The notes below the pieces were generated by a model. It had not been told where the DNA came from. It did no database searches and saw only the letters and a program-made list of their open reading frames with translations. From Candidatus Bathyarchaeota archaeon (GTDB taxonomy: Archaea; Thermoproteota; Bathyarchaeia; Bathyarchaeales; Bathycorpusculaceae), in assembly GCA_963815095.1 (NCBI GenBank), contig CAWFFH010000003.1, positions 1-64,000 of the forward strand: a stretch of DNA of 64,000 nucleotides, in the 5' to 3' direction. The position numbers and the translations under genes are program-made. Each line of letters begins with the position of its first letter. Position 1 is the stretch's first letter. This document shows, piece after piece, positions 1,896 to 11,047 of the stretch.

Positions 1896-1927
1896 ACCTT
1901 TTCCTTTAGGTAGGTGTACACCCACCT
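1896..1927 (+). repeat. Bipartite site copy 1
   Basis: ACCTTTTCC-TTTAGGT-AGGTGTACACCCACCT; 1907-1928 is also a near-perfect 22-bp palindrome. Confidence 0.8.
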
Positions 1928-2070
1928 ATAACTAATAATTGTAACCAGAGTTTAGAGAAATAAGAAAAAGTAAAATAATTTTAAATATACTAAATAAAGA
2001 ATCTTAGTTAACAGATTGTGAGACAAAGAATTGTTTTTTATGAGACTTTTTTAGTTTAGGAGAATCTCAG

Positions 2071-2102
2071 AGGGGTGGGGTAGTCTAGGCTTAGGAAAAG
2101 GT
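2071..2102 (-). repeat. Bipartite site copy 2 (degenerate right arm)
   Basis: ACCTTTTCC-TAAGCCT-AGACTACCCCACCCCT, starting immediately after the TAG of 2103..2909. Confidence 0.6.
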
Positions 2103-2909
2103 CTATTTATTCAAGTTAGCGGTTTTTCGATGCCTAAGAATTACAGCGGCAGAGAGTATTGCAATCATCAAAGGCAAAATAGCTAACCAAGAAAACTCTG
2201 GAATGGAAGGAGTTGGCGTTGGTGAAGGAGTATTAGTTGGTGATTGTGTGGGATTTGGTGAACTTGTGGCAGAAGTTTCTCCTATGGTTATTGTTTGTGT
2301 GCTACTCCAATCGCTTGATTGACCAGTGAATTCATAGGAAGACCCCATTGCCATTGAAACTCCTTGCCCTGTAATATACCCAATTTGTGCCTGAACTTGA
2401 AACTCCACTGGGTAGCCATTAGGAATTCCCGCAGAGAACGACTTCAAAGCAATCGGCAGGATAGTTTCCCCAGACTTTGAAGCGGAGAAATTTGGAAAAT
2501 AATCGCCCATATTACCCAACCCTCCAAATGTACGTGTGCTGTGTCCCTCTTCAAAGGGGTAATAGTTCCATTGGTCTCCAAAAACGCCTTTGAACCTAAA
2601 ATTATAGTAAAGATTGATAACGTTCCCCACTGAATCATTGTAAGTGGTGAAGGGTTGACTCTTAATGGTGAATACAAGGCTTCTGTCATCCACATGGTAA
2701 CCATTATGCGTTATGACTTGCTGTCCAGTGTATTGGTCTTTTTCATAAGTGGGCGGTACATCATATGAATTATCGATATACTTCATAGTAAATTCTGGTA
2801 CAGATGGTTTAGGTATTGATTGAGCAAATGCAGATTCAACCATTATTAGGCTTGACACTGCCAAGATTACAACAAGAAGCAAAGAGAATGCCTTGCGTGT
2901 ACTGCCCAT
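2103..2909 (-). CDS. Secreted/surface protein with PEF-CTERM-like anchor
   Basis: Signal peptide from MGSTRKAFSLLLVV, SIPKPSVPEFT motif, Pro/Thr/Ser linker, IPEFS + TM helix + basic tail. Start shortened from the ORF track because a zinc-ribbon ORF occupies 2950-3069. Confidence 0.8.
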   Translation of the reverse strand: MGSTRKAFSLLLVVILAVSSLIMVESAFAQSIPKPSVPEFTMKYIDNSYDVPPTYEKDQYTGQQVITHNGYHVDDRSLVFTIKSQPFTTYNDSVGNVINLYYNFRFKGVFGDQWNYYPFEEGHSTRTFGGLGNMGDYFPNFSASKSGETILPIALKSFSAGIPNGYPVEFQVQAQIGYITGQGVSMAMGSSYEFTGQSSDWSSTQTITIGETSATSSPNPTQSPTNTPSPTPTPSIPEFSWLAILPLMIAILSAAVILRHRKTANLNK

Positions 2910-2949
2910 GTTCACTATTAAGAAATAGTAGGAGATAAAAGGCTTATTC

Positions 2950-3069
2950 TCATATGCTTGTTTTGGAACGGATTGTTCCACATGGGCAAACTAAGAAAGC
3001 TGTATCATTGAATATTTCAACAGCGTAGGAAGTTTCTCCGCATTTAGGGCATTTGTCTATGTTTTGCAT
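2950..3069 (-). CDS. Small zinc-ribbon protein (39 aa)
   Basis: MQNIDKCPKCGETSYAVEIFNDTAFLVCPCGTIRSKTSI*, CxxC...CxC, in operon order with upstream element genes. Confidence 0.6.
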   Translation of the reverse strand: MQNIDKCPKCGETSYAVEIFNDTAFLVCPCGTIRSKTSI

Positions 3070-3181
3070 TTTAACTTCTCAAAGACTCAGTTTTAACCGT
3101 TCAACCTCTTCTTTAAGAGAAGAAATTTCACGTTCCATATGGGAAATTTTGGAAAGAAGATTAGGGGATTTTTCCATATGC

Positions 3182-3700
3182 TTACACCAATCTATTTTGC
3201 AGAGAATAATCCCAACTTCCGATGCATTTTCCACTTTTAAATAGCTGAATAAGTTCCTGTTTAGTTAGTTCTTGCGCCTTCCCTTTATCAATTTTAAGGT
3301 AATCCCAATCGGCACTATTGAAAAAGCTATTCGGAAGAGGTGCTTCCATCGTTGTTCCATTATCTAAGTTTCTTAAATACACCGTAACCCAATTAGATTT
3401 TATATTGTCTCGTCTTGGAACATCAAAACTTTTGGTTACTAGTTTAATAAAAGTGTGTTTTCCTTGTTCGGTATTTAATATAGTGTATGTTAACGGAAGA
3501 CTATAGTTTATTACTTGAACGGGGTTTTCAAAGTCAGTTGATTGGATTTCACGTTTCACGTGAATATATACTGTAATCTGCTTCTCGAAATTCCACGCAC
3601 CTAAAGATAGCCGTTCAAATGTTTCTTGGTGACCCTTCATAGTGCTTCTTTCTATGAAATATTCCTCTGTTTCTTCATCATATTTTATTTGTTCACTCAT
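3182..3700 (-). CDS. Hypothetical protein (element)
   Basis: 172-aa ORF, start overlaps the stop of the upstream ORF. Confidence 0.7.
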   Translation of the reverse strand: MSEQIKYDEETEEYFIERSTMKGHQETFERLSLGAWNFEKQITVYIHVKREIQSTDFENPVQVINYSLPLTYTILNTEQGKHTFIKLVTKSFDVPRRDNIKSNWVTVYLRNLDNGTTMEAPLPNSFFNSADWDYLKIDKGKAQELTKQELIQLFKSGKCIGSWDYSLQNRLV

Positions 3701-4242
3701 TAATTTTCAACCTTCTTGAAACTTTTTGGTCGATTTGCTTTTACTACGCTGTTTCCACATCTTTCATATTTGCACATATTACCTTGAAATTCAAAAGTGC
3801 CGCCTTGTTTGAGAGCCTTAGTAACTAATTTTCCATATAGTTCATTGGCAAGTTTGTAATCTACAGCTTGAGGGTTTTCTGCAATTTTTTTAATATAATT
3901 CATAGCTTCCTCTTGTGAAGGAAATTTGGGGTTCATATCCAAAATTGCGCTATCAGCGAAATCAACATTTTTCAAAGTCCAAATTTCTTTAGGCTTTGGT
4001 GCTTCAAGTGGTGGGTTTTCGCCATTCCTATTATATTCGGGAATCTTTTGCCCTATATGGTTGGTTGAACTTTCAAATTTCTCTTTTTCAGACTTTAGTA
4101 ACGCCTTGATTGTCTCTTGCTGTTCGCCTATTTTTTGGTCTCTTTCACTCAGGATTTTCCTCATTTCCTCTAGCTCAGGACTTTTATCCAGAACGATTTT
4201 GAGGGTTGCATTTTTATTTGGGGTTTGTTCGGGATTAGACAT
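3700..4242 (-). CDS. Hypothetical coiled-coil protein (element)
   Basis: 180-aa ORF with an N-terminal coiled-coil stretch, operonic. Confidence 0.7.
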   Translation of the reverse strand: MSNPEQTPNKNATLKIVLDKSPELEEMRKILSERDQKIGEQQETIKALLKSEKEKFESSTNHIGQKIPEYNRNGENPPLEAPKPKEIWTLKNVDFADSAILDMNPKFPSQEEAMNYIKKIAENPQAVDYKLANELYGKLVTKALKQGGTFEFQGNMCKYERCGNSVVKANRPKSFKKVEN

Positions 4243-4248
4243 TTTTAT

Positions 4249-4428
4249 TTATTCCTTTTCCAGCCTAGTTTTTTTGGTTGGCATTACAAATTTATCGGCT
4301 AACTCGTCACAAACCTTATCAAGTGTCGCAAAATCACGGGGTGTATCATCAACAGTATTTACTATGTTACCAGAGTTTTTAGGGGTCTTAAGTTGTATAT
4401 CTTTCAATGTTTCTCTATTTTTTGACAT
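4249..4428 (-). CDS. Small hypothetical protein (59 aa)
   Basis: MSKNRETLKDIQLKTP...TRLEKE*, fills the gap between co-oriented ORFs, GAGG upstream. Confidence 0.55.
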   Translation of the reverse strand: MSKNRETLKDIQLKTPKNSGNIVNTVDDTPRDFATLDKVCDELADKFVMPTKKTRLEKE

Positions 4429-4440
4429 GTTAAAAAACCT

Positions 4441-4695
4441 CTAACTTAGCTTGCCCTGAGCTAATATTGGAGAACCATATACCTGAATTATTATGGTATC
4501 ACCATTTGGATAAACACTGAAAGAAGCATTATCGCCTTTGGTAGCTAAAATTTCGCTTAGGGGAACTGCAATCTGCTCCATGGCAAAACGGCATGAAGGC
4601 AAATAGCATTTTTGCTTAATGACTTGGAGAGCAAAATTCAATCTATCAGAACTATAAAGATGGTTCTGTTCACTTCTCATATATTTTTTCTTCAT
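4441..4695 (-). CDS. Hypothetical protein (element)
   Basis: 84-aa ORF with AGGTG upstream; first gene of a minus-strand operon. Confidence 0.6.
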   Translation of the reverse strand: MKKKYMRSEQNHLYSSDRLNFALQVIKQKCYLPSCRFAMEQIAVPLSEILATKGDNASFSVYPNGDTIIIQVYGSPILAQGKLS

Positions 4696-4835
4696 ATTTA
4701 ATACACCTTATCTGGCATTTTTCACCACTTTCTATATATTTAAATATTTTTGTCAAACTTAACAGTGAAATCAAAAATTGTAACATAATATTCTACAAAA
4801 TAAGTTAAATATATGGGTAGTGGAGAAGAAAGTTA

Positions 4836-4869
4836 AGGTGTGGTGGGGTCACCTATCGCTGGAAAAGGT
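4836..4869 (-). repeat. Bipartite site copy 3
   Basis: ACCTTTTCC-AGCGAT-AGGTGACCCCACCACACCT, 9 nt after the stop of 4879..5133. Confidence 0.7.
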
Positions 4870-4878
4870 GGTTAAGCC

Positions 4879-5133
4879 TTATCCAACAATGGGGTTTGTT
4901 TGTTCGTCATCGTCATCTTGGTCTTCTTCTAGTATTTGTGCTCTAAGTATTCTGCAATCGCCTACGCTTTGTCCACAGTACAGTAGAGCACTCACTAACA
5001 GGTCATTTTCTATAGCTGTCATGAGGGTACTCTCAGCGTCTGAAGCATAGTTATAGTCTTCGCCATCAATTAGAACCAGCTTTTCGTCTGTGTCTAGTCT
5101 AAATACTGTTCCGATTATTCGTTGATAAATCAT
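4879..5133 (-). CDS. Acidic hypothetical protein
   Basis: 84-aa ORF directly downstream of the ATPase, AGGTG upstream. Confidence 0.65.
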   Translation of the reverse strand: MIYQRIIGTVFRLDTDEKLVLIDGEDYNYASDAESTLMTAIENDLLVSALLYCGQSVGDCRILRAQILEEDQDDDDEQTNPIVG

Positions 5134-5145
5134 ACGTTAACACCT

Positions 5146-6678
5146 TTATTCCGAGAGAATGTTTCCATTGCTGGAAAAGGGATTAGTATTGACCTTTTCC
5201 GTCAGTTGGGTGGATAGTGCCAGTCCTGACTGTTTGGTTTCTTTGTGGGTTATTGGATAGTATTTGATTATCACGCCTTCCTTTTCTTCCTTGAGCAATC
5301 CAGCACAGACGAAATTCTTGAGCATTTCACGTAGCCGTTTATCAGAGCAATGGCGTTTCTTGGCGTAGTAGTATACGTTATGAATTTCAGCTATTCTCAA
5401 ACCCATTACTTCTTTGCATTCTGGTTCAATCATTTTCCAGACCGCATATTCTTCAGGTGTCAAGCCTAGTTCATTGCACTTGAGTATGGGTTCGTAGATT
5501 TGTTTGGCAACCTCAATGTCATTAGCATTCACAAAGATGCATGTGCCATCGCTAGTTCTTTCCCTAAATTTGAAATTCAGTAATGCCCAAGCTTCAGCCA
5601 AACCATAAAGCCTTGTGAAATCTCTGTTTGCCTTTGGACCAAGATTCTCGGTTTGTTTTAGGAACCAATCAACTAAGCTCTTTGAGTCTTCTTCTTTAAA
5701 TTGGAATTTCGTAATTCCTGATTTTTGGACTTCGTAAACACGGTCTCTGAGGGCTACTCTTGTAAGTTCTGTTTCATGCCATTTGGGATAGTCAGGGTCG
5801 GTGATTTTGCGTGCCTTCATCTTGATGCCTTCTTGAATCTTTTCTGCGTCATCGTTTGGACTTACCAAAAAGTTTCGACTTGATTCTTGTTCGTCAAGGC
5901 TGAAATTGGTAGATGCGATTAATGCTGTTAGGTAACCTTGGATAAGTACAGTTTTAGTTTTATTCATGCCTTTGTTGTTCTTGTCGGTTATCCAATATTT
6001 TGATACTTTCTCATCATGACTCAGGACGCTTCGTAGGCTTTCAAGTAGTTTAAAGTCTGGTGTATCAAGGAAGACTACAATCTTGTTGGAGAAATCTAGC
6101 AAATATGCACTGTGTCGCATGAGGTCGTACCATTCATCAAATGCTTCCTTGGAGTCTCCTTTTTGGGGAGCTTGGGTTAGGTCTATGGGTTTGAGGTTTC
6201 GTTCATCCACTAGTACAGCATTCGCTTGATGGATGAAGCTTCTAGGGCTTGCTGAACTAATAATTATGATTTTCTCAGGATGTTGAGGGTCAGTGACAAA
6301 CCATAGGCTCTCTTTTATGTTGAGTGTTTTTCCTACACTTGAAGGTCCAGTGAGTATAACGTTTTGTTGTTCTTCTTCTGTCGATGCTAGCAGGTTGACA
6401 AGAAATAGAATTACTTTAACATCATCATCTTTGTAAACCGTTTTGGATAGGACTTTAATCAGGTCGGGATAGGCTAACTCTTTATTCCGTATGCGTTGTA
6501 TGAGGTTTTTCTCTTCTTGGCTTTTTGCGTCTCCTTCTGTTTTCATAGCATTATTTCCCTTTTCGGGAAGTGCTAAATCTTCAATTGGTTGTTGAGGGAG
6601 TGCTTCGGAAGAAACTGAAACAATTGCTTCAGCGATTAACTCCCTATCTTTTGGTTGTTGGTTTAAAGGTTCTGACAT
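5146..6678 (-). CDS. MCM-like AAA+ ATPase/helicase with C-terminal winged helix (putative replication protein)
   Basis: Walker A GPSSVGKT, Walker B-like IVVFLD, ESSR (Arg-finger-like), PKANRDF (sensor-II-like), C-terminal wHTH-like segment. Confidence 0.7.
   Translation of the reverse strand: MSEPLNQQPKDRELIAEAIVSVSSEALPQQPIEDLALPEKGNNAMKTEGDAKSQEEKNLIQRIRNKELAYPDLIKVLSKTVYKDDDVKVILFLVNLLASTEEEQQNVILTGPSSVGKTLNIKESLWFVTDPQHPEKIIIISSASPRSFIHQANAVLVDERNLKPIDLTQAPQKGDSKEAFDEWYDLMRHSAYLLDFSNKIVVFLDTPDFKLLESLRSVLSHDEKVSKYWITDKNNKGMNKTKTVLIQGYLTALIASTNFSLDEQESSRNFLVSPNDDAEKIQEGIKMKARKITDPDYPKWHETELTRVALRDRVYEVQKSGITKFQFKEEDSKSLVDWFLKQTENLGPKANRDFTRLYGLAEAWALLNFKFRERTSDGTCIFVNANDIEVAKQIYEPILKCNELGLTPEEYAVWKMIEPECKEVMGLRIAEIHNVYYYAKKRHCSDKRLREMLKNFVCAGLLKEEKEGVIIKYYPITHKETKQSGLALSTQLTEKVNTNPFSSNGNILSE
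5192..5221 (+). repeat. Bipartite site copy 4 (inside ATPase C-terminal tail)
   Basis: ACCTTTTCC-GTCAGTT-GGGTGGATAGTGCC, closest to the copy at 9024. Confidence 0.6.
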
Positions 6679-6756
6679 ATTTTATCGAAATAATATATAT
6701 GCAACCAAGCATATGTGGTCTATAGAATAGACTAAGACTAAAAAATAGGTTTAACC

Positions 6757-7596
6757 ATGCGGAAAAGCAGATTAGTGCAAGTATCACCAACGGATGAAAT
6801 ATGTCGCAATGATATTCTGGTGCTATTATATGCTAAACAATTGAGATTTGGCGAAATTTTGTCACATTTGGTTGAGGACTATTTTATTCGTGCTCAAGGT
6901 AAAGCAGAAGATGACGGCAAACAGAAACCAAGTAAACCAGAGAGATTCTATGCCAAACAGACCGTTAATGTAAACCTGAAACATCTTAGGGACGAAAAAA
7001 AATTTATTGATTATACCAAAAAGTCTGCAAAATATGGAAGTACTAGACCCCCATATGGCTTAACAACAAAAGGTATGCAAGAAGCAAAAAAACAGGTTCT
7101 AATAAATGGTTTAAGGCTTCTATCGCCTTCAGTCTTGAACGACTATATTCTTCATACAAAAATTAGAGTTGTTGGGAAATGGTTTAGGGAACAAGAATCA
7201 GGATATGATATGAAGAGTATGGATGAAGTAATACCGATTGATTTTGAATTTAGAGGTATTAGGCATAACGAAAAGGCTAAAAAACTCATACAATCAATTG
7301 AGCAAGAACTTTTAGAAATCGGTTATTCAACCGATGAGATATACAAACTATGGTTTTTGCAGCAAGGAGAAGGAATATTCGGGGTCTTGGAATGCTTTGG
7401 TTCTAAAGACTTTTTTGCGGAGTTGCCGTTTAAATTTAAGAACCAAGAAATTGATGAATGGAAAAAAGAGTACCTGAATAAACACATTCAAGAGGCTTTT
7501 GAGAACTATGACTATGGAATGCTTCCTCATATTCTTAGAGAAGACAACGATGACCATGTGAGAGAGTTTAATGAAAAACATAGTAGAAGAAAGTAA
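6757..7596 (+). CDS. Winged-helix DNA-binding protein, divergent from the ATPase
   Basis: ILVLL..LRFGEI..QTVNVNLKHL..FI...YGLTTKG is a wHTH pattern; 78-bp divergent intergenic region. Confidence 0.6.
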   Translation: MRKSRLVQVSPTDEICRNDILVLLYAKQLRFGEILSHLVEDYFIRAQGKAEDDGKQKPSKPERFYAKQTVNVNLKHLRDEKKFIDYTKKSAKYGSTRPPYGLTTKGMQEAKKQVLINGLRLLSPSVLNDYILHTKIRVVGKWFREQESGYDMKSMDEVIPIDFEFRGIRHNEKAKKLIQSIEQELLEIGYSTDEIYKLWFLQQGEGIFGVLECFGSKDFFAELPFKFKNQEIDEWKKEYLNKHIQEAFENYDYGMLPHILREDNDDHVREFNEKHSRRK

Positions 7597-7597
7597 T

Positions 7598-7627
7598 ACC
7601 TTTTTCCGTGACAGGATGTACCCACCT
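7598..7627 (+). repeat. Bipartite site copy 5
   Basis: ACCTTTTTC-CGTGACA-GGATGTACCCACCT, 1 nt after the TAA of 6757..7596. Confidence 0.75.
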
Positions 7628-7721
7628 TCTTTTTGTCAAGAAACGTTGACTAAACAAGTGCCACTTAGTCAAGAAACCTATACAAAAAACCTTTAACCGT
7701 TATAGTTTAATAACAGATGGT

Positions 7722-8633
7722 ATGAGAAAAGGGGCTATTGCTTCAATTATTCTTATAATTGCCTTACTACCCTTACTGACAGTCGCTAATCTTCAAATGG
7801 CAAGTGGAAATCCAACCTACATATGGGATTACCCTGTGAATGGTGGAGTGGTAGCTCCAGACAACCAGACAAAACCACCAACAATTCAATTCTATAGTGA
7901 AAACAACTCAAAGAGTCACACTAACTACCTTTCAATACCAAGTACCATAAGCGTTGGCGATTCAAGCACCACCCAATTCAGAATACTTGAAGAAATATAC
8001 TATCAAACGGATTGGCTATCAAGTAATACTACTATTTACAAGTTTATTGTATCAATTTACAATAGCTCAAATTATAAACCACCTAACCCCACAATAACTC
8101 AATTATCAGCGACAATTAACCTAACCGATGTCCCTGAAGGACCTCACAAAATAACCCTTTATGCCAACGAAACTGGCTATTATAGAAGCCCAAAATATAT
8201 CTCAAGTGTTAATTACACTTTCAATCTTGACTATGGTTTTAGTATTATAGGTGCATCAACACTGAATTTCACTGTAGACACGATTGCTCCTGTTATCTCA
8301 TCAATTTCAATCGAAAACAAAACTTACTATTCGGCTGATCTTCCCCTAAGTTTTATGGTAGACGATAAAACCTCTCAACTTCAATATAGCATAGATAATC
8401 AAAGCAATGTCACTTTAACTTCAAACACTACAATAGTAGGCTTGACAGATGGTAGCCATACGGTCACTGTTTATGCCATTGACAGTTTTGGTAATGTTGG
8501 TATTCAAGCAGTTACTTTTACAGTCACACCCTTTCCAATCGCAATAGCAGTTGCTTCTGCCATTGTATTGGTGGTCGGAATTAGTATTGTTTTATTTCTT
8601 ATCAAAAGGCATCGAAGTCAAAAACCAGCTTAG
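7722..8633 (+). CDS. Secreted Ig-like-domain surface protein with C-terminal TM anchor
   Basis: Signal peptide, two Ig-like repeats (LPEG.H.ITLYA / LTDGSHTVTVYA.D..GN), VDT.AP linker, TM + basic tail. Confidence 0.8.
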   Translation: MRKGAIASIILIIALLPLLTVANLQMASGNPTYIWDYPVNGGVVAPDNQTKPPTIQFYSENNSKSHTNYLSIPSTISVGDSSTTQFRILEEIYYQTDWLSSNTTIYKFIVSIYNSSNYKPPNPTITQLSATINLTDVPEGPHKITLYANETGYYRSPKYISSVNYTFNLDYGFSIIGASTLNFTVDTIAPVISSISIENKTYYSADLPLSFMVDDKTSQLQYSIDNQSNVTLTSNTTIVGLTDGSHTVTVYAIDSFGNVGIQAVTFTVTPFPIAIAVASAIVLVVGISIVLFLIKRHRSQKPA

Positions 8634-8745
8634 ACTAAGATAACTCCCCTTATGGAACGGCTAAGTGTTTTGCATCAAAGCTGGTTGTTGCACTACTTTT
8701 GATTTTCAAACTTAGGCATCGAAAGATTTCTAATTTGAATGAATG

Positions 8746-8776
8746 ACCTTTTCCCACGGTTGGGTGTACCTACCCT
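8746..8776 (+). repeat. Bipartite site copy 6
   Basis: ACCTTTTCC-CACGGTT-GGGTGTACCTACCCT. Confidence 0.8.
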
Positions 8777-9023
8777 CCTTAACATCCATAAATCATCGAC
8801 CAACATTTTAGCCATGGGCTGCCCGAAATTTTTCGAAGTGGTGCTTGACTAGGCAGGGGATTATAATTGCTAATTGACGGGAGTTAGCTTGCAGAATACC
8901 CAAAAACATCTACACAAGTCTAAACTGGTAAATGAATTTGATAAAAATATTTGCAAACATCCATACCAAACCCAACCCAAAACCCCAACCACGCCAACGA
9001 TGATGTGTTGAGAGTATTGTTTG

Positions 9024-9055
9024 ACCTTTTCACGGGCTTGGGTGTATAGTCCCCT
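9024..9055 (+). repeat. Bipartite site copy 7
   Basis: ACCTTTTCA-CGGGCTT-GGGTGTATAGTCCCCT. Confidence 0.75.
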
Positions 9056-9148
9056 TGTCACGGTTAGGATATTGATTCATTGATAACTCGGTAGTAACTT
9101 TTCTAAACTTATTAATAATTAGAAATCTCTATTCTTGAATGATTTAAG

Positions 9149-9670
9149 ATGGCAGACATAACCGATATCTTGGTAGGTCTATTTTCGGGTTTAGTTTCTG
9201 GTGTTTTTATAACTTTGCTTACTGGATGGATTCAAAATAGAAGCGCACAAAAAAACTTAAAAGTTCAGATGGAACAACAAGAAAGGAATCTAAAAATACA
9301 ATTGCTCCATGAAGACAAAAACAAAGCCTTAAGCGAATTATACCAAATTATTTTTCAAGAATATAAAAACTATAATGACTTTCAATGGGCTATTAGAGAT
9401 TTTTTCAATAGTCATTTAGGAAGTTATATTCCTGAAAAAGTTGCTAAAGATATCCTAAGTGAAATAAAACGCATAAACGAAAGAGCTGATACAAATGCGC
9501 CTCCAATAAATGATGAAGAATTAGAGCATGATGAGGAACAATGGGAAGATTACTTCAAAAGTTTACCCTATGATGATGAAATAAGGATAGAACATGACGT
9601 TAAGAACATGACGTACACATTTAAGTTAAGAATTAAGGATATAATCAGAGATAATTTGAATGAACTTTAA
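9149..9670 (+). CDS. Membrane-anchored hypothetical cargo protein
   Basis: 173 aa, N-terminal TM helix then coiled-coil/helical domain, very AT-rich. Confidence 0.75.
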   Translation: MADITDILVGLFSGLVSGVFITLLTGWIQNRSAQKNLKVQMEQQERNLKIQLLHEDKNKALSELYQIIFQEYKNYNDFQWAIRDFFNSHLGSYIPEKVAKDILSEIKRINERADTNAPPINDEELEHDEEQWEDYFKSLPYDDEIRIEHDVKNMTYTFKLRIKDIIRDNLNEL

Positions 9671-9705
9671 TTTCGTTATACCTATTCCTTTTTTCACTTA
9701 AGAAT

Positions 9706-9736
9706 AGGGTGTATACCCTCTCTCATAGGAAAAGGT
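9706..9736 (-). repeat. Bipartite site copy 8
   Basis: ACCTTTTCC-TATGAGA-GAGGGTATACACCCT, 6 nt after the stop at 9743. Confidence 0.75.
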
Positions 9737-9742
9737 AGTTAG

Positions 9743-9991
9743 TTATTCTTGGTCTTCATCTAAGTCTTCAGGGAATAACGGGTCATCGAATAGAACTAAA
9801 CCGTCACCGTTGGAGTCATCCATTATATTCTCTCTGATTTGTTTGTCTTCTTTTGGTTCTTGGCTGTTTTTCTTGGAATTAAAAAACATGGCTTTAAATG
9901 CTCTATAAGTGAGCGTCACGCCAACAAACACAATCAATAGCAAAATGCAGACAGCGAAAAAATCAAAAATGAAAGATAAAAAATCAATCAT
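9743..9991 (-). CDS. Small membrane protein with acidic tail
   Basis: Likely start MIDFLSF just after the integrase stop; one TM helix, acidic C-terminus. Confidence 0.6.
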   Translation of the reverse strand: MIDFLSFIFDFFAVCILLLIVFVGVTLTYRAFKAMFFNSKKNSQEPKEDKQIRENIMDDSNGDGLVLFDDPLFPEDLDEDQE

Positions 9992-9995
9992 CCAA

Positions 9996-10852
9996 TCACT
10001 TCCTCTTTTTGAATAGTTTAACGCCATCCATTTCGGTTACATATTCAAATCTAGGTTCGATAAGTGCGGTTGCTTCATCAAGATTATGGGCTACTTTACA
10101 TGTATATTCTTCTTTAGCGAAAGGCACAAGATGAGTATACACTAAAGTATTTTCTATACGCTTATGACCAAGAAACCACTTAACATGCAATATATCTTTG
10201 GTTCGCTGGTATTCCATAGTTGCCTTCCAATGGCGAAAAGACCTGAAAGCTAATCATAAGTAAACGTGGATTACCCAATTTCTTGCTAAGTTTCTTACGC
10301 ATTCCATAGTAGCTTCTGCTCCAATCATTAAAATCAGATGCCCCGAACACTCTATCATTATTATGTGGAAGAGAAAGCAATCGTGCTAACAGATGATTAC
10401 TAGGAGGTAAAGTTCTAGGCATTGTGGTTCTTGGTTGGTGTAATAGATACAGAATTATTTTCTACGTTGATATCTATCCAGCGTAATTTCCATGCTTCAC
10501 CTGAATCTGCTCCTGTCTCTTTTAATAACTCAAGAAATATTGAGAGTTTAGGGTAGGCTTTTGATATCAAATTATCTAACTCATATTCATGGGCTACAAA
10601 TATTGGTTTATCTTCACGGGTGAAATGTGGCTTATCCCATGATAGCTTATGAAATTGAATATAATAATCATAAGCATTAGCTAACAGTTCTTTTCTTGCT
10701 TCACTAACTGGATAACTACAGATAAAGATTCTTGATTTGTTCGGGTTTATCTAAATTTCCAAGTTTACCTAAAACCTGCAACCTCATCAAATAACTATCT
10801 GCTGTAACCTCACGGATATGACCCAAAAGAAATTGGTGCAGTAGGTGTACAT
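9996..10852 (-). pseudogene. Tyrosine recombinase/integrase, frameshifted
   Basis: Joined fragments read SYLMRL..LDKPEQIK / RKELLANAYDYY..WDKPHF..PIFVA..ELDNLI..FLELLKETGADSGEAWKLRWIDI..PTKNHN / RTLP.. / SFRHWKATMEYQRTKDILHVKWFLGHKRIENTLVYTHL. At least three 1-nt shifts. Confidence 0.9.
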
Positions 10853-10857
10853 CAAAG

Positions 10858-10942
10858 TGCAGAGGGTGGGATTTGAACCCACGAACCTCTGGAGGATAGG
10901 CTCCTGAAGCCTACGCCTTTGACCATGCTCGGCGACCTCTGC
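10858..10942 (-). tRNA. tRNA-Leu(CAG)
   Basis: GCAGAGG acceptor, D-arm GCCGAGCATGGTCAAAGGC, anticodon stem TAGGC-TT CAG GA-GCCTA, variable arm, GGTTCAAATCC T-loop. Confidence 0.97.
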
Positions 10943-11047
10943 ACAAAGTGGCTTCTCGTTAGTCAAATTGCCTTTAATGATAAATACATTACCACGGTTG
11001 GGGGTTTAGACTCAATTGCCCAAAGATTAAAAATAGTGTGAAAAAAA

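Follow-up and report, generated by a model that had tools for sequence, protein, structure and literature searches.

A strand-oriented ~30-nt motif at the edges of accessory modules in a Bathyarchaeia genus: a candidate transcription-unit boundary and exchange junction

Introduction

Bathyarchaeia are uncultured and, to our knowledge, almost nothing is known of their gene-expression signals or mobile-element biology. The 64-kb stretch analyzed here (hereafter, the window) carries an integrated, plasmid-like element of ~9.7 kb in which a short bipartite sequence recurs eight times. A first-pass annotation of this DNA proposed that the eight sites belong to a system for shuffling gene modules, with a layout resembling that of tyrosine-recombinase sites. 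This raises the question of whether the sequence is a site of recombination, a signal read during transcription, a binding site for a protein, or a repeat without function for its neighbors. As a cis element the motif is sharply delimited and open to testing, and it marks accessory-module edges in at least 48 species-level genomes. A terminator or insulator recognized by a factor would give archaeal transcription an unusual, sequence-specific stop signal and genetic tools a possible part, while a recombination junction would represent a new mode of cassette assembly in archaea. Either way, the motif would account for the mosaicism of these islands and offers a practical marker for finding them.

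Results

The motif and its eight copies in the window

The motif spans ~30 nt, with the consensus GACCTTTTCC-CACGGT-TGGGTGTACCCACCC. The exact 9-mer ACCTTTTCC starts at 1896 (+), 2102 (−), 4869 (−), 5192 (+), 8746 (+) and 9736 (−), and versions with one mismatch start at 7598 (+; ACCTTTTTC) and 9024 (+; ACCTTTTCA), which together confirm all eight sites of the first-pass annotation. All six exact 9-mers of the window fall inside 1896–9736, and the earlier impression that the backbone lacks a copy holds because the best match between 11 and 64 kb in a genome-wide profile search reaches only E = 42. The reported distances of 0, 1, 6 and 9 nt between a same-strand stop codon and the site were likewise recovered, at 2102 (−), 7598 (+), 9736 (−) and 4869 (−), respectively. 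Two other parts of the description stand only partly. The supposedly conserved right arm, RGGTGTAY, is good at 1896, 8746 and 9024 and near at 7598, 9736, 4869 and 5192, but poor at 2102 (TAGACTAC). The spacer does differ among the eight window copies, but it has the consensus CACGGT across 81 family members, with AGCGAT and ACGGGGT as recurring classes; it is semi-conserved and leaves no free overlap region.

The motif holds ~30 bits of information, concentrated in the boxes CCTTTTCC and GGGTGTA and not in pairing. Its most conserved part is the T4 tract (95–100% per column), and ACCTTTTCC and GGTGTA are conserved at 90–100% across species. Base composition runs from C/T-rich through G-rich (43%) and C-rich (43%) to T-rich (42%), and in many copies a TAG or TGA stop directly precedes ACC. 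The features of the element are as follows:

1118–1138: partial copy of the tRNA-Leu 3′ end, the other end of the ~9.7-kb element
1896–1930, +: site 1, paired convergently with site 2 across an AT-rich spacer; not at the end of any + strand gene
1931–2067: AT-rich spacer of this convergent pair (22% GC)
2068–2102, −: site 2, 0 nt after the TAG of surface-protein gene 2103–2981; right arm weak
4835–4869, −: site 3, starting 9 nt beyond the stop codon of acidic gene 4879–5133 (84 aa)
5146–6678, −: 510-aa P-loop ATPase
5147–5181, −: degenerate sense-strand copy (CCCTTTTCC AGCAAT ...) within the last ATPase codons
5192–5226, +: site 4, antisense within the 3′ coding end of the ATPase ORF
6757–7596, +: gene for a putative winged-helix protein of 279 aa, oriented away from the ATPase gene
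7598–7632, +: site 5, starting 1 nt beyond the stop codon of gene 6757–7596 and followed by TCTTTTTG
7633–7721, +: conserved promoter module with two GTCAAGAAAnnTTGAC-type boxes and the TATA-like CCTTTAAC
7722–8633, +: Ig-like membrane-anchored protein gene, in a cassette with a counterpart in another species
8711–8745, +: C-terminal coding remnant (LRHRKISNLNE, then a stop) from a paralogue of 2103–2981, abutting site 6
8746–8780, +: site 6, the best match to the family consensus
9024–9058, +: site 7, 125 nt upstream of the ATG of gene 9149–9670
9702–9736, −: site 8, starting 6 nt beyond the stop codon of gene 9743–10027 (94 aa, acidic tail)
9996–10856, −: tyrosine integrase pseudogene, with homology across three reading frames
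10857–10942, −: tRNA-Leu(CAG), the integration target

The ATPase is likely a plasmid- or virus-type replication protein, an assignment offered as a lead only. The winged-helix assignment of the 279-aa protein is putative and its support weak: a homologue matches the BlaI-type repressor family at E = 0.0011, below the cut-off. The tyrosine integrase is intact in two relatives.

Distribution in the genome and genus

The 2.69-Mb genome contains 54 exact ACCTTTTCC 9-mers (our own count from the listing) and ~25 copies of the motif by profile, 17 of which lie outside the window element. Within the genus, the motif is present in 48 of 120 species-level genomes, and it was found in none of the 16 other genera searched. 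A system specific to the element, as first envisaged, is not what we find, as the motif also punctuates chromosomal surface-protein arrays and a provirus. Some arrays are co-oriented, for example with 12 sites on one strand over 20 kb. Sites occur singly, in tandem (36 nt apart), as inverted pairs and as orphans, and the genes that flank them mostly encode membrane or secreted proteins.

Placement relative to genes

Placement was assessed for 99 unique sites and 2000 random positions, using ORFs of at least 60 aa. A same-strand ORF stop falls −3 to +20 nt upstream of 38 of the 99 sites, compared to 64 of the 2000 random positions, and an opposite-strand stop falls in this range at four sites. 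A same-strand ATG follows 61–140 nt downstream of 39 sites (140/2000 random positions), and 21 of the 99 have a gene downstream but none that ends within 25 nt upstream. In the window, sites 2, 3, 5, 6 and 8 stand at the ends of five of the seven transcription units inferred from the ORF map, with site 3 ending the unit of the ATPase and 84-aa genes; no same-strand gene precedes sites 1, 4 and 7, and the tightly packed operon at 3079–4695 has no site inside. Site 5 lies 124 nt upstream of the ATG of the Ig-like gene, the TATA-like CCTTTAAC lies ~40 nt before that ATG, and the promoter module between them is common to many surface-protein genes of the genus. Site 4 had been taken as one of two brackets around the module of ATPase and winged-helix genes; it is antisense inside the 3′ end of the ATPase gene and therefore does not bracket that gene. 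This site is conserved in six of eight related ATPase genes examined. A generic 3′-end signal, which the annotation had named among the outcomes that would refute its proposal, is ruled out, as the 9-mer follows 4 of 1382 long ORFs. Generic 3′ ends of the genome are also T-rich. A promoter was rejected as an identity for the motif because CTTTTC/TTTTCC is depleted upstream of genes.

Folding and termination signals

Sites fold slightly better than controls (mean z of −0.65 vs −0.04, p = 1.5e-5), and the antisense strand folds better than the sense strand (58 sites vs 36). Among the window sites, z is below −2 in two of eight, and one has no fold at all. RNAalifold returned no consensus structure for 81 sites, and a proposed 5-bp stem was paired in 68.1% of cells compared to 68.8% in shuffles, with no covariation. 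A scan for the bacterial-type intrinsic terminator (a G+C-rich hairpin followed by a T run) found none at the eight sites (8 found vs 8.9 in shuffles), and this candidate was rejected for them. Downstream of sites, neither a second T4+ run (35/99 vs 21–34 in control windows) nor T5+ runs are enriched.

Mosaic boundaries at the motif

The claim that the sites partition the element into modules was upheld. In a comparison of homologous elements, a check the annotation had itself suggested, related loci lose homology at the sites. Of 300 homology-block ends across ten related elements, 88 lie between −15 and +45 relative to a site start, against an expectation of 2.4%. Among site pairs with a homologous flank, the homology is confined to the upstream side in 8 and to the downstream side in 10, and covers both sides in 4. 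Boundaries lie at either edge of the motif, 0 to +3 on the 5′ side or +20 to +25 and +29 to +36 on the 3′ side, and the motif variant accompanies the upstream block in some pairs but the downstream one in others.

The Ig-like cassette, which like most cassettes has its own promoter, is 86% identical to one in another species that has unrelated flanks and the motif at both ends, with the shared stretch extending from ~+20 of one motif to +23 of the following one. A block made up of site, gene and site (591 nt) is 95% identical between two genomes, and inward-facing sites flank cargo regions. The promoterless 84-aa gene stands between two direct copies of the site, while relatives have one site there and no such gene; site 3 is homologous to the single ATPase-end site of a relative of this kind. 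The ATPase-end site scores well in two relatives lacking the gene (E = 8e-4 and 4.5e-5), whereas in three elements with the gene inserted the ATPase-end copy is degenerate (E = 2.7 in one of them, the other two giving no match at E ≤ 3) and a good site stands after the inserted gene instead.

The start-to-start spacing of sites 1 and 2 is kept at 203–208 nt in six related elements, with a GC content of 22–27% between them in the four measured, and 1931–2067 looks like an insulated or origin-like region. The position of site 8 holds a site in 11 related elements. The degenerate copy at 5147–5181 and site 4 form a head-to-head dyad at 5173–5200.

Discussion

We tentatively favor, with somewhat less than even confidence, the interpretation that the motif is an orientation-dependent transcription-unit boundary, either a terminator or an insulator, whose copies double as junctions for module exchange. 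Its users would be tRNA-integrated plasmid-like elements, the provirus and chromosomal surface-protein arrays, all accessory modules. Placed just past the final stop codon of one unit and ~60–140 nt ahead of the start of the next, the motif would provide an invariant U4 tract, then a G-rich and then a C-rich segment, at which transcription may stop. Since the sequence is near-invariant, recognition would be by a specific factor acting on RNA or DNA and not through a generic hairpin. As the same ~30 nt stands at every module edge, the copies could also serve as exchange junctions, either as short patches of homology or as places where breaks are tolerated. Modules would be gained, lost and swapped there through general recombination and not through a dedicated system, and such exchange would give rise to a cassette-like mosaic.

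Known archaeal terminators offer a partial parallel. Termination efficiency in Methanococcus is set by U4 tracts that precede transcript 3′ ends and by the binding of aCPSF1 to them (PMC8716108), and the motif likewise places an invariant U4 tract at the 3′ ends of units. Unlike the motif, the U-tract terminators described have neither strict flanking conservation nor a second box ~10 nt downstream; the motif, for its part, shows no enrichment of a second U tract and serves only ~1% of genes. The 90–100% conservation of its boxes is not explained by a plain terminator and counts against one.

That the motif is instead the dedicated recombination site of a cassette system, comparable to attC or pdif, at which the element integrase, host XerA or another enzyme would insert, excise and invert modules, we consider unlikely. 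Module boundaries do coincide with sites, and the Ig-like cassette, the 591-nt block, the 84-aa gene between direct sites, the inward-facing sites around cargo, the built-in stop before ACC and the tandem and orphan sites would all suit such a system; the strict tie to transcription direction and predicted unit ends is accounted for at least equally well by a transcriptional boundary element. The tyrosine-recombinase layout initially perceived finds no support: the arms do not form inverted repeats, the spacer is partly conserved, and boundaries lie at the motif edges with no fixed crossover. Nor did a link to a recombinase emerge, as the window integrase is frameshifted and none of the four PF00589 matches in the genome adjoins a site cluster, while IS110 copies are not associated with sites (1/4). 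The motif also extends to 48 of 120 genomes, compared to 16 of 120 with relatives of the element ATPase. We regard as rather improbable the related proposal that the motif is the junction site of an undescribed archaeal gene-cassette system, in which units of site and gene, some with a promoter of their own, move without an integron integrase. Recombination targeted to the ~30-nt site would then operate among plasmid-like elements, proviruses and surface-protein arrays, diversifying the cell surface and mobile-element cargo.

The annotation's remark that the sites are unlike attC or dif proved correct. Position directly after a cassette stop, co-oriented arrays and cassettes in unrelated contexts recall attC, but attC sites are longer than the ~30 nt of the motif, which also differs in its weak folding, the absence of covariation, the individual promoters of most cassettes and the lack of a single crossover point. 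A search for the 7-nt inverse-core and core motifs of attC within ±200 nt on both strands found no such pair at seven of the eight sites, and those near 4869 are offset from the site itself. The best genomic match to IntI (TIGR02249) scores 25 bits against a cut-off of 265. Lacking the core pair, a hairpin kept by structure and IntI, the motif was rejected as an integron attC; archaeal integrons, as one report presents them, have canonical attC folding and IntI (PMC9668308). The dyad at 5173–5200 can be read in the manner of dif/pdif, as two inverted arms around a short center (in one relative, 10/11 identical with 6 nt between). Ordinary sites, however, are not dyads, the sites flanking modules do not alternate in orientation and no crossover lies in the spacer. 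A Xer/dif-type core site, with inverted arms and a 6–8 bp overlap, was rejected because the boxes are not inverted copies and the boundaries lie off the spacer, and the dyad is not the host dif because it is missing from the rest of the chromosome.

There is a still lower probability, in our estimation, that the sites are bound as double-stranded DNA by a sequence-specific protein from the element or its host, whether as iteron- or origin-type sites for the Rep-like ATPase or as stoperator-like roadblocks for a winged-helix repressor, with the convergent pair around its AT-rich spacer as a replication origin. The concentration of information in two boxes, the dyad (GGAAAAGG-N12-CCTTTTCC), which occurs once in the genome and is seen again at the ATPase 3′ end of four relatives, with back-to-back sites there in two more, and the low GC and kept spacing of the convergent pair are consistent with binding, as is the weak BlaI-type match. 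Stoperators, the sites of the L5 repressor in Cluster A mycobacteriophages, are described as more than 20 asymmetric 13-mers that occupy short gaps between genes and point in the direction of transcription (PMC9283540), and the motif shares with that description its layout and strand rule, with many asymmetric intergenic sites near stops in an integrated element. It differs from them in being ~30 nt and bipartite and in its archaeal host. Counting against a stoperator identity, an operator at the early promoter and confinement to the element of the repressor are both lacking: the profile search places no site in the divergent ATPase/winged-helix promoter region (6679–6756), and most copies in the genome lie outside the element, the motif being shared by many loci and species. 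The 279-aa protein, moreover, is only 27–31% identical among elements with near-identical sites, an HTH protein of the islands occurs in many motif-free genomes (71/120), and regions adjoining host orc1 genes contain no motif.

REP elements are short intergenic repeats just 3′ of stop codons, with a conserved head and an imperfect palindrome, found singly, in tandem or inverted. By analogy, the motif might be a small selfish or neutral intergenic repeat of the REP or MITE kind, spreading into gene-distal positions and functionless for neighboring genes, a view that we find very improbable. The conserved head and weak palindromic tail, the single, tandem and inverted arrangements and the restriction to one genus are what such a repeat would show, but a REP/RAYT system was rejected, with copies in the tens and not the hundreds of REP/BIME families and no match to the RAYT-type Y1 transposase (PF01797) in the genome. 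The strand rule relative to genes is strict, and positions in the element architecture are fixed across elements whose proteins have diverged to 27–60% identity, which argues for purifying selection at architectural positions.

Two further observations were counted toward the transcription-unit boundary, as terminator or insulator. One is the decay of internal copies; the other is substitution of the motif, as in another genome with a 78%-identical Ig cassette that has no motif at the corresponding place and carries a 9-bp hairpin and T5 just before the same promoter module.

Copies of the motif

Eight copies of a bipartite motif of about 30 nt had been claimed in the first-pass annotation for the tRNA-Leu(CAG)-integrated, plasmid-like element of about 9.7 kb, and all eight are present:

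1896, forward strand
2102, reverse strand
4869, reverse strand
5192, forward strand
7598, forward strand
8746, forward strand
9024, forward strand
9736, reverse strand

The exact 9-mer ACCTTTTCC occurs in six of these sites, the other two, at 7598 and 9024, each being one base off; the six are the only exact copies in the 64-kb window, all inside 1896-9736, and the entire 2.69-Mb genome holds 54. When the genome was scanned with a profile made from 17 motif copies and sites were counted at E ≤ 1.5, about 25 were found, eight of them in the element and the others clustered elsewhere in the genome (C2:6750, C3:734-735 kb, both ends of C4, C5:160-162 kb, C6:94-97 kb and C8:18-20 kb). The claim that the backbone lacks a complete copy held, as the best profile match between 11 and 64 kb of the window was no better than E = 42, and the distances of 0, 1, 6 and 9 nt from stop codon to site were likewise confirmed. 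Two points of the annotation had to be revised. The spacer had been described as different in every copy, but 81 family members share the consensus GACCTTTTCC CACGGT TGGGTGTACCCACCC, with CACGGT as the spacer consensus and recurring spacer classes besides. The placement of the 5192 copy relative to the ATPase gene also needs correcting: it lies antisense within the final codons of that ORF. A partial look-alike of spacer and right arm (TTACCACGGTTGGGGGT) that lacks the left box sits at 10989-11005, outside the element and about 47 nt past the tRNA-Leu gene.

A family of tRNA-integrated elements

Comparison among relatives reveals a family of tRNA-integrated elements, about 7-11 kb long, that share one architecture.

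Common order of features in the element family (coordinates are those of the window)
1. tRNA
2. Tyrosine integrase, intact and with a PF00589 match in two relatives
3. Small acidic-tail protein, then a site
4. Variable cargo region, with a site ahead of each gene
5. Site ending the 279-aa putative winged-helix gene (6757-7596, forward strand)
6. Divergent 510-aa ATPase gene (5146-6678, reverse strand), with back-to-back sites in its 3' end
7. Further units with terminal sites
8. Convergent site pair

The window integrase (9996-10948) is a pseudogene, in which homology to a relative's intact 354-aa protein runs across three reading frames. The convergent pair has a start-to-start spacing of 203-208 nt in six elements, and its spacer has a GC content of 22-27% in the four in which this was measured. 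At 1896-2102 of the window the two sites enclose a 137-nt spacer (22% GC) whose sequence is not conserved among relatives. Such a convergent pair around an AT-rich spacer resembles an origin or an insulated region. Inside the 3' coding end of the ATPase gene, at 5173-5200, lies a head-to-head dyad, GGAAAAGG-N12-CCTTTTCC. It is unique in the 2.69-Mb genome and recurs at the same ATPase position in four related elements, while two more carry back-to-back sites there; in one relative the dyad is formed by two 11-nt inverted arms, identical at 10 of 11 positions, around 6 nt. Its role could be in resolution, in Rep binding or as an mRNA hairpin.

Neither the ATPase nor the 279-aa protein matched entries in Pfam, PHROGs, NCBIfam or PADLOC; profile searches against solved structures gave chance-level matches only, and tblastn searches of plasmid and phage collections returned no match. 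A language model alone supplies the lead that the ATPase may resemble protein clusters whose domain takes its name from a plasmid protein of Methanothermobacter. When metagenomes were searched with the ATPase for free circular forms, six loci came back, all of them on large contigs or short fragments. The AT-rich stretch between the third site and the operon starting at 4695 holds a 36-nt inverted repeat (4718-4830; 78% complementary, 41 nt apart), which may be a promoter, operator or other cis element. The cargo of one related element (L042:9397-10365) includes a DUF4062 protein (E = 1.8e-21), so element cargo is not limited to surface proteins.

Placement of sites relative to genes

Placement was assessed for 99 unique sites with 1.5-kb flanks, drawn from the window, the other clusters of the genome and the loci of relatives. 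The site started between -3 and +20 nt from a same-strand stop codon (ORFs of at least 60 aa) in 38 of the 99, as compared with 64 of 2000 random positions, and an opposite-strand stop fell in the same range at four sites. A same-strand start codon followed 61-140 nt downstream at 39 sites (140 of 2000 random positions). When the two neighbors were cross-tabulated, 23 sites had both, 17 had the close upstream stop only and 21 the downstream gene only. The adjoining proteins are often hydrophobic at their ends: hydrophobic N-termini occur in 34 of 49 proteins encoded downstream of sites (19.5% of genome ORFs), and hydrophobic C-termini in 24 of 39 encoded upstream (16.5% of genome ORFs), with recurring C-terminal tails such as ...RHRKTANLKQ and ...ETKQTPS among the latter.

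A conserved promoter module follows the motif at 18 of the 99 sites, at 7633-7721 of the window as well as in loci L034, L035, L036, L037 and L039 and in many relatives. In it, two palindromic GTCAAGAAAnnTTGAC-type boxes precede a TATA-like CCTTTTAT that lies some 40 nt ahead of the ATG, a location that matches that of generic TATA-like words in this genome. The genes behind it encode proteins that are secreted or anchored in the membrane and whose signal peptides are alike (MGRIxKT...), and the module looks like the mark of a regulon of surface-protein genes under a shared operator.

Sequence and structure of the motif

Several copies resemble hairpins to the eye, with apparent compensatory changes, yet the tests gave no support for a conserved RNA hairpin. 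RNAalifold returned no consensus structure, the share of paired cells in a 5-bp stem was 68.1%, as compared with 68.8% in shuffles, and there was no sense-strand G-U bias. The mean folding z was -0.65 at sites and -0.04 in control segments (p = 1.5e-5), a weak signal in which only 17% of sites fell below -1.5; the eight window sites span +1.77 to -2.41. A scan for a hairpin followed by a T-run detected none of the eight, a second U tract was not enriched as a component of the signal, and an Rfam search matched the tRNA alone, with no known family for the motif. The information is carried by sequence, namely the CCTTTTCC box, one spacer G and GGGTGTA, and on this basis points to recognition by a specific factor.

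Module exchange at the sites

Among ten related elements, 88 of 300 homology-block ends fall at -15 to +45 of a site start, where 2.4% would be expected. Across a 64-locus set, one of 79 blocks had both ends at sites, 27 had one end and 51 had none. In 4851 site pairs, the upstream flank alone was shared in eight, the downstream flank alone in ten and both in four, two of these four being tandem-site artefacts. In alignments, similarity begins at the 5' edge of the motif or ends just past its 3' edge. The Ig-like cassette (7618-8616) is 86% identical to that of another species, which has different neighbors and the motif at both ends, and the promoterless 84-aa gene (4879-5133, reverse strand) lies between two direct site copies, at a point where two relatives carry only one site and lack the gene. 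From the block ends, this cassette and the 84-aa gene we conclude that modules are exchanged at the sites. The Ig-like gene ends early compared with its 86%-identical homologue; in the interval that follows (8634-8745), about 70 nt past the gene end, the remnant of a C-terminal tail coding sequence (LRHRKISNLNE*) abuts the sixth site, implying a small rearrangement at the gene 3' end.

The module shuffling proposed in the annotation is partly supported: exchange occurs at the sites, but its pattern does not fit a single crossover in the spacer. Breaks fall at 0 to +3, +20 to +25 and +29 to +36, and in some pairs it is the upstream block that the motif variant accompanies, in others the downstream one; one spacer crossover does not fit such differing positions or a variant that travels either way.

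Candidate functions of the motif

Our leading interpretation, to which we give somewhat less than an even chance, is that the motif is a transcription-unit boundary element. It is based on a strict strand rule, on sites at the ends of five of the seven inferred window units with none inside a packed operon, on an invariant U4 tract, and on two natural variants. In a homologous Ig-like cassette (L048:1445-1476), an unrelated 9-bp hairpin (-11 kcal/mol) with T5 takes the motif's place directly ahead of the same promoter module, and elsewhere the addition of a gene downstream, within the same unit, goes with a decayed site. In Methanococcus, U4 tracts and aCPSF1 set termination (PMC8716108). A plain terminator, however, does not explain why the sequence is nearly invariant and the structure weak, why some sites have no upstream gene, or why the dyad and the origin-like pair exist, features that keep protein-binding and recombination readings alive. 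A dedicated recombination site, for which the exchange of modules speaks, is nevertheless unlikely: the two boxes are not inverted copies of each other, contrary to the tyrosine-recombinase arm layout suggested earlier, and none of four tyrosine-recombinase matches in the genome lies by the site clusters. That the motif is bound in replication or by a repressor, as the dyad and origin-like pair might suggest, appears improbable to us. The closest layout is that of mycobacteriophage stoperators (PMC9283540), from which the motif departs by its size, by the absence of a promoter copy and by its spread beyond one element. A selfish repeat we regard as very improbable.

Several more specific candidates were rejected. 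A promoter was excluded, since generic promoters in this genome consist of TTAAAT/TTTATA some 42 nt ahead of the ATG and the regions upstream of genes are depleted of CTTTTC/TTTTCC; a generic 3' signal or terminator fails since the 9-mer follows just four of 1382 long ORFs and generic gene ends are simply T-rich. Host origin boxes (no motif beside either of two orc1 genes), REP/RAYT (no Y1 transposase in the genome) and an integron (no integron integrase, IntI) were dismissed as well, and the sites are unlike attC, as the annotation had held, with attC core motifs absent at seven of eight. An IS110 target was discarded, one of four IS110 copies being near a site. That copy (L037:1454-2500, on C4 of this genome) is a transposase gene 93 nt upstream of a site and one of four near-identical copies, the other three lying away from sites. 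Co-distribution with the island HTH protein is uninformative, because the protein occurs in 71 of 120 genomes, motif-free ones included.

Distribution across genomes

With at most one mismatch, the pattern was found in 10 of 41 relatives, all of the same genus, and in none of 16 genomes from other genera; a wider draw of 120 genomes from the genus found it in 48, and a reversed-pattern control gave scattered single matches only. Close homologues of the ATPase, often broken, occur in six of the 120, so the motif reaches far beyond this element. Elsewhere in its own genome it is found in a provirus with terminase, in a 2.6-kb insert after tRNA-Leu(GAG) and in surface-protein gene arrays, and one relative has 12 sites within 20 kb, all on the same strand. 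The available portions of the literature on Bathyarchaeia mobile elements, Bathyarchaeia termination or intergenic motifs, archaeal terminators and archaeal integrons describe no such motif.

The insert (L040:8323-11040; C3:734-737 kb) carries two sites directly 3' of tRNA-Leu(GAG), the first motif beginning 21 nt past the tRNA gene. No att repeat of at least 10 nt was found there; in relatives without the insert, the flanks nearly abut in one and are 50-800 nt apart in several others.

When one genome of each prokaryote species was scanned for exact matches, 21 stretches were returned, 20 of them from records whose titles name Bathyarchaeota, Bathyarchaeia or uncultured archaeon and one from a record titled Chloroflexia; viral contigs gave no exact match. 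A contig titled Chloroflexia bacterium MAG (L030) has two sites with typical surface-protein tails and a 591-nt site-gene-site block that is 95% identical to one in a genome of this genus; its presence under that title could reflect mis-binning or transfer.
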